The translations under genes were made by a program, and so were the position numbers. Positions 5,790 through 49,444 of a stretch of DNA of 64,000 nt are shown here, in pieces (the first letter of the stretch is position 1; each line of letters opens with the position of its first letter). Location of the stretch: assembly GCA_964013405.1 (NCBI GenBank), contig CAXGWI010000002.1:6461-70460 (forward strand), written 5' to 3'. A model generated the notes under the pieces. It searched no databases and was not told where the DNA came from. It was given only the letters and a program-made list of their open reading frames with translations. The DNA comes from an uncultured Myxococcales bacterium (GTDB taxonomy: Bacteria > Myxococcota > UBA4151).

Positions 5790-7616
5790 ATGACACGTGC
5801 CACTTTAATCGCCTTCGCTGGCCTCCTGCTCGCCTGTCCCCAGCAGACGGACCCCCGACCGGACCCTGTGTGTGGGGACGGTAACGCTGAGGCCTGGGAA
5901 TCCTGTGATGATGGCAACGATGTGGCCACCGATGAATGCACCAACGACTGTAAGCCCGCCCGCTGCGGTGACGGCATCGTGCGTGAGGGCGTTGAGGAAT
6001 GTGACGATGGCAATACCATCAAGACCGATGCCTGCCTCAATGACTGCCGGGCCAGCTACTGCGGCGACGGGTACATTCACGAGGGCGTTGAAGACTGCGA
6101 TGATCGCAACGAGCGAGCCACCGATGATTGCAATGCCTGTTCATTTGCAGCCTGTGGTGACGGTGCGGTCCAAGCTGGCGAGGAATGTGACGATGGCAAC
6201 GAGAGCAGCACTGACGCTTGTCTTGCGGATTGCACCGAAGCCAACTGCGGTGACGGTGTGGTGCACGAAGGCGAAGAAGCTTGCGACGATGGCAACGACG
6301 CCGATGACGACGCGTGTTTGAGCAATTGTGTTGAAGCTGTCTGCGGCGATGGCGTGCTCCAGACCGGCGTCGAAGCCTGCGATGATGCGAACGAGATCGA
6401 TACGGACGCGTGCCTCAGTGATTGTGTCGAGGCCCGCTGCGGCGATGGTGTGATTCAGGACGGCGTTGAGGGCTGCGATGATGGCAACACCGACACGGGG
6501 GACGGTTGCTCCGATCAATGTATGGCGGAGTCTTGCGGTGATGGGGTCGTTCAAGAGGGTGAGGCCTGCGACGATGGCAACGAGAGCGATACGGACGCCT
6601 GCACGACGTTGTGCGTTGAGGCGGTCTGTGGCGATGGCATTGTACGGGATGTCGTCGAAGCCTGCGATGACGGTAACGACGTGGATACCGATAGTTGCCT
6701 GAACACTTGCGAGGCTGCCAGTTGCGGCGATGGCATCGTTCAGGAAGGCGTTGAAGGCTGTGATGACGCCAATGATGTCGACGATGATGCCTGCACGAAC
6801 GACTGCGAGGCGCCGATCTGTGGCGATGGCATCGTCCAGGCCGGTGAAGCCTGTGATGATGGCAATGAGCAGACGATGGATGGCTGCTCCGGCTGCCAAG
6901 TCGCGGAAGGGGGCCTGCAGTTTAGCGAGTTCGTCGTCACGCCGACAGGCGCGGAATTCTTTGAGATCCACAACCCCAGCGATCAGGATGTCGATCTCGC
7001 CGGTCTGTATGTTGCTGATTACCCAAGCTACTGGAGCCACGCTTACGATGGCAGTAGCGAGCCGAACCGGACGGATTTCTTCGCCCGCTTCCCGGAAGGG
7101 GCAACGATTGCACCCCGGGGCTTCACGGTTGTTTCGGTGCAGTCCGCGACCACTTATCAAGAGGCTTACAACGAATTGCCCGACTACGATCTCGATCCAC
7201 AGGATGCGGAAGCGCCATCGCTGATCGGCGAGATCGGTAACGGCCGAAGCCTAACCAATGGTGATGAGATGCTCGTCCTCTTCTCCATCGATCAAAATGG
7301 TGTGGTCACCGATCTGGACTACGTTCTGTGGGGGAATCGGGATGATGCCTTGACCAAGGGGGGCCAAGCCGTGGGTGACCACGTCTACGCGGCGGAAACC
7401 CCAGCGGATCAACAGGCTTTCATGAGAAGTCCCCGGGCCGGCCAGAGTGCCCATCGCTGTGATCCTCTGGAGGGGAACCAGGCGGCCGAGGGCGGCAATG
7501 GTGCGAATGGGGCTGACGAGACCAGTGAGAACCTGGGCGAGACGTGGAGCGTCAGCGATGCACCGACGCCTCGAGGGGCGCCGGCTCCCGCCAGTTGCCA
7601 GCCTGAAGAGGACTAG
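5790..7616 (+). CDS. Lipoprotein with 11 Myxococcus-type Cys-rich repeats (DUF4215-like) and a C-terminal lamin-tail-like domain
   Basis: Lipobox LLLAC. 11 CGDG...CDDxN...C...C units. [34 protein letters not shown] is an LTD signature. Confidence 0.85.
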
Positions 7617-7621
7617 CCGCC

Positions 7622-46556: not shown

Positions 46557-46985
46557 CTAGGGCGATCGGCTACCGATCACGGTGCCTTCGCCGACGCAGT
46601 TATCCCCCTCGACCTCTACACGGCCGGAAACCCCGCCGTTGTCGGAAGTGGTGAGATCGAAGGTCATGGTGAAGCCGTCCTGGCGTTCGTGGGTGACTTG
46701 CAGCCGGCAATAGGGGCCCTGGGCTTCGGAGGTCATGGACAGCGTCTGCATCTCACCGGGGCGCTCCAGAAAGATACCGCCGCCAACGATCTGTTTGACA
46801 AAAAAGTCATCACTGCGAGGAAGATCGGCTTCATCGCAATCACCCCCCGTCCAATCGAGGGAGAGTTGCCAATGGGCCGACTCGTAGCAGGGGTCATCGA
46901 CCGGCGCTGGGGCTTCACCACTGGGGCAAGCGCCCAGAGCCAGAAGAAGACCCAGCGCGAGGTGTGGGTGTCGGTACAGCATCAT
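46557..46985 (-). CDS. Small hypothetical lipoprotein
   Basis: Lipobox LALGAC, beta-rich. ATGA overlap with the upstream repeat protein. Confidence 0.7.
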   Translation of the reverse strand: MMLYRHPHLALGLLLALGACPSGEAPAPVDDPCYESAHWQLSLDWTGGDCDEADLPRSDDFFVKQIVGGGIFLERPGEMQTLSMTSEAQGPYCRLQVTHERQDGFTMTFDLTTSDNGGVSGRVEVEGDNCVGEGTVIGSRSP

Positions 46986-49444
46986 GGCGTCTGGTCCACA
47001 TTGTGGGGTGGTTCGCGCACAAAAATCTCCAGTCCGCCGCTTTGTTGCCAGCGGGGTTGGCCAACGTTGGCATTCGATTTGGAGGCGAAGGAGCCGTCGT
47101 CGCTAAATCGAGAACTGGAAATACAAAGGGCCGATTTGGGCCCAACCCAGGTCAGCGGTCGGACGGCAGATTCTAGAGTGTCGCTACAGCTACCGTAACA
47201 GCCGATACAAAGATCGGCGTCGATAGGCTGGGAATTGATCACTTCACCATCCCGGCCCGGCGGCACCCGAAGTTCGAGGACCTTGCGCTTTGCCACCATG
47301 AGCCAGGGCTGGAAGCCTTGATTGGGTAGCGTGCCGGAGACCAGGGTGAGTAGCCCCGCATCCCGGCGCATGAAGCGCCATTTGTTGTTCTGGTTGAATT
47401 CATCGACGTTGGGGCGCCGGAAGATGCCATCGATTCTGCCTTGGTCGTCGACTTGGCTCGTCGGGTCCTCGGCCAGATCCACCGTCTGCCGGGTCCGAGT
47501 TCCTGGTTCGAAGACGCCGCCGTTGATGTAGACGACAAATTCCGGGACGCCAGAGCCAGAGTCTTCGGTCTCTTGAAAGAATTTGATGAGGGCGTCACCG
47601 GAGCGCTGGTTCAGCGGACGAAGGCCCGAGCAGGTTTCAAAGAAGTGCCTTGGAACATTGCCGTCGGCCCGCACCTTGGCGCATTCCGTCCAGCCACCGG
47701 TCCGGCCCCCGGCCGTCACGTCGAAGTCGCAGTAGACTTGGCGAGTTCGCAGGATATAGCGATCCTGATTGCCCCGGGCCGGTACGAGTCGACGGGTATT
47801 GATGTAATAGAAACCGCTCTCAAGGGCATCGTCGTAGACTTGTTGTAGCGCCAGGCAGCTCGGCGCGGCCTTCGCCTCGGTGGACCCATCGGGATAGGCC
47901 CTGCATACGGCGTTACCATCGGCATCATCGAACTGGGAACAGGGCGTCAGGTCCTGACGTGCTTCGACCGCGTCGTCCCCATCCCCCCGATTCGGTTCTA
48001 GGTAGGTGCCGTTATTGGGTCCATCATCGCAAGGCTCGTAACCCGGTTGGCCAGCGGCAAGGTCGAGACGAGTGATCCCATCACCACATTGAGCGGGGCT
48101 GCATTCGTTGGTGCAGGCATCTTCGTCGGTGTCGTTGCCATCATCACAGGCTTCATGGTTGGGATCATCTTCGTTGAGGATGTCGCGACGAACGACCCCA
48201 TCGCCACAACTGGCGAGCACGCAATTGTTCAGGCAAGCGTCGGCGTCGTTCCCGTCGCCATCATCACAACTTTCGGCACCCTCCTCGCCGATCGCGATGT
48301 CTGTTCTGACAAGACCATCGCCGCAGCGGGCAGCGAGGCAAACACCACAGCGCCCGTCCGCATCGTCGCGACATGCATCGGGCAAGCAGATACAACGGTC
48401 GCTGCTGTCGAGGTTGCCATCGTCGCAGGCTTCAAAGCCCACGTTGATGCAGCGACCCATGTCGCCAGCCGTGATCACGCAGACCTCGTTTTCGCCGCAG
48501 CTTTCTGTCGTTCGGCAGGGAGCTTCCGAGCCGATGGTGATATCATATCGCTGTTGTCCATCCCCAGCCGTATTGAGCCGACAGGTTGCGAGGCACCCAT
48601 CCTCGTTGGATTCGTTGCCATCGTCGCAGGCCTCGCCGTTCACATCATCTTCGGGGAGGTCACGCCGCTGGATGCCATCACCACAGCGGGCTCGACGGCA
48701 ATCGATGCATGCGTCATCCTCGACCCCATTGGAGTCATCGCATTCTTCCACGCCCGTGCGCGGGATCCCGTCACCACAACGAGCGACGATGCACTCATTC
48801 GTGCAACTGTCATTGTCACTGTCGTTGCCGTCATCGCACCGCTCTTCGACGGCATAGATGACCCCGTCGCCGCAGGCGGCCGGGATACAACTGTTGCGGC
48901 ACGCGTCCGATTCGACCGTATTGCCATCGTCGCACTGTTCGACGCCGGTCCAAACGACTCCATCACCGCAACTGGCCTCGTCACAGTTGTTGAGGCACTC
49001 ATCTTGGTCATCATCGTTGCCGTCATCACATGCTTCGCCGTCTTGTCGGTGCCCATCGCCACATTGGGCGACCTGACAGACGGTCGTGCAGTTGTCGTCG
49101 TTGTCGTCGTTGCCATCGTCGCAGTCTTCGACGCCGGTCCAAACGACGCCATCACCACATCGGGCCGTGGTGCAGCTGTTGGTACAAGCATCCGTTGAGA
49201 CCTGATTGTTGTCGTCACACTCTTCACTGTCTGTTCGCAGGAAGCCATCGCCACAGCGAGCTTCTTGGCAGGTGGCGAGGCAGGCATCGAATTCGTTGTT
49301 GTTGCCATCATCGCAGGGCTCCCCGGGCTCAACGATGCCATTGCCGCAGACGGCGACGCCCTCCGTCGGGGTCGTGTCTACGAGGGTCGGCAGCGGACTG
49401 GTACAGCCCGTGGTCACAAAAAGCAGGAGTCCCCATCGCTTCAT
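46982..49444 (-). CDS. Lipoprotein with ~12 Cys-rich repeats and a fibrinogen-C-like tip
   Basis: Lipobox VTTGC. SCLALQQ...SGFYYIN...QVYCDFD...GGWT matches the start of fibrinogen-related domains. Confidence 0.8.

Follow-up and report, generated by a model that had tools for sequence, protein, structure and literature searches.

A lineage-specific family of predicted stalk-and-head lipoproteins in an uncultured Myxococcota bacterium

We have studied a window of 64,000 nt, the whole stretch of DNA analysed here, from an uncultured Myxococcales bacterium (assembly GCA_964013405.1, contig CAXGWI010000002.1, positions 6,461–70,460). Four of its genes, which we call P1 to P4, code for putative lipoproteins built on the same plan: an N-terminal lipobox, a stalk of acidic cysteine-rich repeats and a C-terminal head or tip. 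Our conclusion is that they are probably part of an expansion of envelope lipoproteins specific to this lineage, which grows mainly by tandem duplication and whose heads would capture ligands; this function is predicted. The repeat corresponds to DUF4215 (PF13948) and to TIGR02232 (myxo_disulf_rpt, 'cysteine-rich acidic repeat'). In the genome which contains the window we have found it in 153 open reading frames (ORFs) or fragments, with a total of 1,345 repeats; they occupy 317 kb, which is 8.1% of the assembly.

The four genes are found at positions 5790–7616 (P1, + strand), 36197–38029 (P2, - strand), 38102–39601 (P3, - strand) and 46982–49444 (P4, - strand) of the window. These coordinates are exactly those of the initial annotation, which described in each gene a lipobox followed by 10–13 acidic CGDG..CDDGN repeats; the ORFs themselves, both profiles and a count of the repeats in register confirm this description. 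The repeat unit has about 32 residues with four conserved Cys: CGDG-x5-7-E-x-CDDGN-x4-D-x-C-x3-C-x3. All four proteins match DUF4215 with 124–182 bits (cut-off 27, E 1e-36 to 1e-54) and TIGR02232 with 138–225 bits (cut-off 20.8, E 1e-41 to 1e-68). When counted by their CGDG register there are 11 repeats in P1 (stalk at 5871–6902), 13 in P2 (36608–37885), 10 in P3 (38489–39457) and about 11 in P4 (48011–49348). With exactly four Cys in each repeat, the stalks have 44, 52, 40 and 52 Cys respectively, the last figure including an insert of about 85 aa, rich in Cys, which interrupts one unit of P4. This insert is also present in the orthologue of P4 (P0005); the final unit of the P4 stalk is truncated. 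The composition of the stalks is strongly acidic, 25–29% D+E (28.8% in P1) versus 3–6% K+R. A comparison of P2 with P3 shows that they have in common a small Cys-rich N-terminal cap, at 37886–37984 in P2. A six-frame motif scan of the whole window found no repeat outside these four genes.

At the N-terminus we read in the sequence the lipoboxes LLAC in P1 (Cys16, signal peptide at 5790–5837), LVGC in P2 (Cys15, 37985–38029) and FIGC in P3 (Cys15, 39557–39601). P4 has a lipobox-like TTGC (Cys14, 49403–49444), which is non-canonical at position -3. The same feature is general in the genome: a signal peptide with a lipobox is found in 129 of the 133 family ORFs with an intact 5' end, as judged by a heuristic of our own and not by a trained predictor. 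After the lipid Cys the most common residues are G, P, S and A; Asp and Lys are not among the frequent ones. The genome also codes for the enzymes Lgt (PF01790, 196.6 bits) and LspA (PF01252, 118.6 bits).

The genome is a 3.9-Mb assembly in 244 contigs, 94% complete. A hidden Markov model built from 44 repeats of the window was compared with all its stop-to-stop ORFs. Four or more repeats are present in 112 of the 153 ORFs; complete members have a median of 9 repeats, with a range from 1 to 35, and the longest stalk reaches about 1,100 residues. BLAST sorts the non-repeat regions into 73 groups, and we have assigned head classes with Pfam on 40 representatives. The most abundant heads are RCC1-like beta-propellers (about 43 genes), followed by 19 heads similar to fibrinogen-related domains (FReD) or COLFI, four C-type lectins, four FGE-sulfatase-type domains and several LamG/ConA-like domains. 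Right-handed beta-helix, pentapeptide, PPC, Big_1, lamin-tail, matrixin and beta-lactamase-like heads are also found, and many tails have no Pfam family. The initial annotation had proposed from the window a modular family; it is borne out by the inventory, with one type of stalk and many unrelated heads, and is far larger than the window could show. The heads belong to dozens of families without relation to each other, and most of these families are binding modules. A few members carry an extra domain between lipobox and stalk, and two members, C35:13556-14884 (12 repeats) and C48:8006-11035 (27 repeats), have a lipobox and no C-terminal domain.

In the window the four tips had been described as lamin-tail-like, degenerate C-type lectin, canonical C-type lectin and fibrinogen-like. 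All four assignments hold, two of them with restrictions: the lamin-tail match lies just below the Pfam cut-off, and the fibrinogen-like one applies at superfamily level to the first 60 residues or so of the P4 tip. The tip of P1 (6903–7613) contains the putative lamin-tail-like domain in residues 372–499, followed by an unassigned tail of 110 aa; it matches PF00932 (LTD) with 32.9 bits (cut-off 34.3, E 9e-8) over profile positions 4–96 of 109. P3 presents the clearest case. Its tip (38105–38488) matches PF00059 (Lectin_C) with 66.1 bits (cut-off 22.6), and the QPD and WND motifs can be read in its sequence. The AlphaFold2 (AF2) model of P3 has an overall predicted local distance difference test score (pLDDT) of 79, with 84–94 in the head, and the modelled head superposes on galactose-specific C-type lectin-like domains (CTLDs) with template modelling (TM) scores of 0.78–0.83. 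It is a canonical C-type lectin domain of galactose type, the binding specificity being predicted from sequence and model.

The P2 tip (36200–36607) has no match in Pfam, PF00059 included, and neither EPN/QPD nor WND in its sequence. A phmmer search of the PDB finds the CTLDs of snaclec, LOX-1 and CD69 (best E 4e-7), and the tail is 30% identical to the CTLD of a paralogue (C4:55148). It is a divergent lectin-like CTLD which resembles the types that do not bind sugars, rather than a canonical lectin; since the EPN/QPD and WND motifs are missing, the term degenerate C-type lectin is fair. These two proteins share with the C-type lectins of PF00059 either the score, the sugar motifs and the galactose-type fold (P3) or a snaclec/LOX-1-type resemblance (P2); they differ from them in being bacterial and in their fusion to a DUF4215 stalk with a lipid anchor.

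The P4 tip (46985–48010) required comparison with its paralogues. When its 342-aa tail is searched alone, no Pfam family is found at E <= 1. The genome contains three paralogues of it, and the first 60 residues or so of these P4-type tails align with a family of 15 paralogous tails (hhalign 97%, E 9e-11). Both groups have in common the motif SC...L....SG.YWI.....VYCDM..GGGWT, which in P4 takes the form SC..SG.YYI..VYCDFD..GGWTEC from about residue 518. Among the 18 tails (P4 and 17 paralogues), COLFI (PF01410) is detected in 15 (best E 5e-12) and Fibrinogen_C (PF00147) in 12 (best E 4e-9). A profile made from all of them finds in the PDB intelectin-1 (8e-13), the C-propeptides of procollagen III and I (2e-12) and tenascin (1e-10), as well as the FReDs of fibrinogen beta/gamma, ficolin and angiopoietin. 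Since the profile of the tail family finds all these domains, fibrinogen-like is right at the superfamily level, for the N-terminal subdomain only, and it is visible only in the paralogue profile. The rest of the tip, about 230 residues, has no match to a described family and is hypervariable among paralogues. An AF2 model of the tip, calculated from an alignment of five sequences, has a pLDDT of 36, with moderate confidence over the first 65 residues approximately. Complete tips of the P4 type are very rare: with a full HMMER scan we found about 10 clusters of full-length relatives in a set of 1.84 billion representatives, and a word-based homologue search in a set of 5.8 billion proteins gave a single relative, an orthologue with 70% identity.

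From these features we may propose how the proteins work. Once Lgt and LspA have processed the protein, its acylated Cys would anchor it in a membrane, most probably the outer membrane. Two disulfides would form in each repeat, whose acidic CDDGN..D loops would probably bind Ca2+, an ion which is abundant in sea water. The disulfide-locked repeats, probably stabilised by Ca2+, would form a stiff spacer which holds the head off the membrane, where it could capture glycans or the surfaces of particles, prey or kin. The family grows mainly by tandem duplication, changes in repeat number and fast divergence, with occasional new combinations of stalk and head, and a few tracts of recombination can be seen between neighbouring stalks.

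Several observations weigh against this proposal. Surface exposure is not readable from sequence, and lipoproteins may also be oriented towards the periplasm; the binding of Ca2+ is deduced solely from the acidic CDDGN..D motifs. The repeat has no sequence relative in the PDB and no solved structure. The AF2 model of P3 has a predicted TM score of 0.36, a value which a long non-globular chain would be expected to give, so that the geometry of the stalk cannot be measured on it. Our search gave no RNA-seq run in which the gene is present. Enzymes (matrixin, beta-lactamase-like, FGE-like) are found among the heads, and a few members are headless; for these reasons a binding repertoire does not fit the whole family. 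Finally, the gene counts come from a fragmented metagenome-assembled genome (MAG), in which contig ends cut 44 of the 153 family ORFs; the true number of genes is therefore probably 130–150. Much of the fragmentation of the assembly appears to come from the repeat family, and because its repeats have this effect it is probably undercounted in surveys of short-read MAGs. As for the stalk itself, in the P3 model it has almost no regular secondary structure, with a pLDDT of 70–89, and the best 50 Foldseek matches to the full model are all confined to the lectin head.

The location of the proteins is the point on which the main alternative turns. They might be lipoproteins which face the periplasm, with stalks acting as spacers or Ca2+ scaffolds and heads which bind peptidoglycan, envelope glycans or partner proteins. 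A lipobox by itself is no sign of surface exposure, and it is in the periplasm that disulfides form. However, a periplasm would hardly have room for the longest stalks, with up to 35 repeats, and lectin, FReD and RCC1 heads, with a very fast turnover between sister genera, are better suited to changing external targets. We consider this alternative unlikely, although it deserves more weight than the others discussed below.

How the family has evolved can be studied in the pair formed by P2 and P3, which are adjacent on the same strand with 73 bp between them. They are colinear, with 59% identity over the N-terminal 384 residues, and the last repeats match as well; P2 has three additional internal repeats (13 versus 10 in P3). 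To judge from this alignment, the pair has arisen by tandem duplication, followed by a change in the number of repeats and by divergence of a lectin which now has no sugar motif; it is not a swap of tips. P4 may be compared with another species of the same genus, in which its neighbourhood is wholly syntenic. P4 is 67% identical in both species, with insert and tip conserved, versus 76–87% for its neighbours. The nonsynonymous divergence (dN) is 0.26 for P4 and 0.10–0.15 for the neighbours; stalk (0.26) and tip (0.22) have similar values, given as dN only since the synonymous divergence is saturated. In the same congener the head of P1 has an orthologue with 83% identity. The orthology of the P4 locus can be traced within the genus only: in the six nearest Myxococcota MAGs, a GTDB synteny search found no DUF4215 gene beside the threonine aldolase gene (59–66% identity).

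The initial annotation had suggested that recombination in the repeats swaps the tips. In its strongest form this would be an actively recombining cassette system, in which frequent homologous recombination in the repeats would reshuffle heads or change the length of stalks, as in antigenic or phase variation. Some pairs of adjacent genes have features which such a system would leave. C54:3-917 and C54:914-2641 are neighbours with unrelated tails; the DNA of their last stalk repeats begins with 150 nt of 98% identity, continues with 180 nt of about 80% and is unrelated thereafter. This is the trace expected from recombination or gene conversion inside the stalk and it fits the idea of tip swapping; the 98% tract is, however, situated where a contig ends and might also be an overlap produced by the assembly. 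The pair C112:8151 / C112:10692 is likewise a mosaic. There are 26 adjacent pairs in the family, with both tips classed in 20 of them: the tip class is different in ten, as swapping would allow, and the same in the other ten, which speaks for tandem duplication given that 13% of pairs would have the same class at random.

The rest of the genome argues against frequent exchange. An all-against-all blastn comparison of the 153 ORFs gave tracts longer than 380 bp and above 84% identity in two gene pairs only, each formed by neighbours; no other match exceeded 128 bp. The conservation of the P4 architecture and of the P1 head between species points in the same direction. We have also built a tree of 76 proteins from their three N-terminal repeats (121 columns) and mapped the class of tip on it. 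The tree is poorly resolved, with 42 of 73 forks unresolved, and shows an association rather than a swap rate. RCC1 heads require 14 state changes on it versus 22.3 in shuffled data (none of 500 shuffles was as low), FReD-like heads 9 versus 12.2. These numbers are far above the single change which congruence predicts, and one clade of 24 stalks mixes FReD-like tips with 14 other tail groups. The phylogeny of N-terminal stalks and the class of tip are thus far from congruent but significantly associated, within the limits of a poorly resolved tree. Tip swapping is weakly supported and an active cassette-like swapping is not supported, given that there are only two pairs with high identity, that P2 and P3 are duplicates, that P4 is conserved and that stalk and tip are associated; we regard the cassette system as very unlikely. 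Over short times stalk and head are for the most part co-inherited; in the long term either their combinations have been reshuffled or the heads have diverged past recognition, and domain shuffling across evolutionary time is implied. The family has grown chiefly through tandem duplication followed by divergence, and tracts of recent recombination are rare.

The lineage is set apart by the density of the family. In first-look counts, the six genomes of the taxonomic family to which the window belongs (two genera, 2.0–3.9 Mb) have 660–1,330 repeat candidates each, whereas 25 other Myxococcota genomes have 1–587, the top count coming from a genome of 11 Mb. This represents about 300 first-look candidates per Mb versus about 53 per Mb or less in the other Myxococcota sampled. 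Heads differ between the two genera: the sister genus has neither the P1 nor the P4 tip, while CTLD tips are found in all six genomes. Among named relatives the closest are MAGs with the labels uncultured Myxococcales or Myxococcota, on which the assignment to Myxococcota relies. The sequence is present in marine metagenomes. In public Myxococcota MAGs and in Sorangium, DUF4215 is fused to Lectin_C, FGE, RCC1, Fibrinogen_C, COLFI, PPC, LamG and P-proprotein domains; when these proteins have a name, it is only 'DUF4215 domain-containing' or 'cysteine-rich repeat protein'. Since the same fusions occur in public protein sets, the modular architecture was already catalogued. P1 to P4, far above the cut-offs of both profiles, share such repeat-head fusions with their database relatives, which elsewhere have a much lower repeat density. 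What is new is the layout with a lipobox anchor and a C-terminal head, together with the 8% of the genome devoted to it. In the literature we found almost nothing on DUF4215/TIGR02232, with no function assigned, and nothing relevant on bacterial FReDs or on expansions of RCC1 and lectins in Myxococcota.

Among the proteins which have been studied, the closest design is that of TraA, the receptor for outer-membrane exchange in Myxococcus xanthus. In TraA a lectin-like PA14 head is combined with Cys-rich repeats, which have been proposed to act as a rigid stalk, and with MYXO-CTERM as the anchor; it was described with one close paralogue (PMC3325183). The likeness lies in a recognition head placed on a tandem Cys-rich stalk which is tethered to the envelope. 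The polarity is opposite, since P1 to P4 have an N-terminal lipobox and a C-terminal head; their repeat is TIGR02232 versus TIGR04201 in TraA, and here there are more than 100 paralogues with unrelated heads. PA14, TIGR04201 and MYXO-CTERM (TIGR03901) have no match in P1 to P4 at E <= 0.01. By analogy they might function like TraA, yet they fall outside its family. The comparison raises the possibility that our proteins are receptors for kin or self, whose heads would bind the same protein on sibling cells. A lectin-like head on a Cys-rich stalk with a lipid-type anchor is what TraA has (PMC3325183), and the polymorphism and fast evolution of the family would suit recognition loci. Against it stand the absence from P1 to P4 of the TraA domains just mentioned, a number of paralogues (more than 130, with unrelated heads) which exceeds the needs of a kin-recognition locus, and the host, a marine bacterium with a small genome in which social behaviour is not evidenced. 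We give this explanation hardly any weight and keep to ligand capture by an expanded lipoprotein family as the preferred reading.

A second comparison can be made with the FReD lectins and intelectins of animals, such as ficolins, tachylectin-5A and the fibrinogen-related proteins (FREPs) of snails. The profile of 18 tails shares with them the module Cys...SG.YWI...VYCDM..GGGWT; the difference is that in our tails only the N-terminal subdomain is conserved, the remainder being hypervariable among paralogues, with no recognisable Ca2+/ligand site of a P subdomain. Snail FREPs also have diversified multigene heads on a repetitive stalk, like these tails.

P1 to P4 are surrounded by housekeeping genes with no relation to them, which code for an SLC12-type permease, YaaA, a 5'-nucleotidase, a GH3-family enzyme, a fatty-acid hydroxylase and a threonine-aldolase-like lyase; beside the four genes we saw no partner gene that is conserved. 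This neighbourhood bears on still another explanation, namely that the proteins are shed, either by cleavage or on outer-membrane vesicles, as a cargo of enzymes or lectins destined for prey or polymers. Enzyme heads do exist in the family and genes for Kazal protease-inhibitor lipoproteins adjoin, but most heads are non-catalytic binding folds and there is no conserved cleavage site or secretion partner gene beside P1 to P4; we find it very improbable.

Some of the genes near the four have features of their own. The lyase gene (Beta_elim_lyase, 49441–50508, - strand) has a stop codon which overlaps the start of P4 by 4 nt. This arrangement is kept in the congener; the conserved overlap suggests that lyase and P4 are co-transcribed. 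Beside P2 and P3 there are two ORFs (40004–41260 and 41262–42827, both on the + strand) with serine-protease-inhibitor domains of Kazal and pacifastin type; the second one also has a DUF1295/PEMT-like membrane region. Their orthologues in the congener are about 54% identical, which indicates that they evolve fast. An ORF of 878 aa (43896–46532, - strand) combines an amidohydrolase domain with thrombospondin type-3 repeats, which bind Ca2+. Directly downstream of P2 is the GH3-family gene (34504–36153, - strand), similar to acyl-acid amido synthetases; this family is unusual in bacteria.

DUF4215/TIGR02232 is an abundant repeat which is functionally blank, and here the largest gene family of the genome is built on it. 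The layout of lipobox, stalk and head gives a testable model, in which the repeat is a disulfide/Ca2+ spacer that presents heads from the membrane. As a tentative extension, doubtful but worth stating, the family might be a bacterial pattern-recognition repertoire in a deep-branching group of marine Myxococcota with small genomes: more than 130 germline-encoded, lipid-anchored receptors for prey, particles or glycans, with about 19 fibrinogen/intelectin-like, about 43 RCC1 and several C-type-lectin heads, which would turn over between sister genera and acquire new combinations by recombination between tandem neighbours. Such a repertoire would be convergent with the FREP and lectin arsenals of invertebrates. 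The ligands of the fibrinogen/intelectin-like, C-type-lectin and RCC1 heads could show how uncultured bacteria recognise particles or prey.

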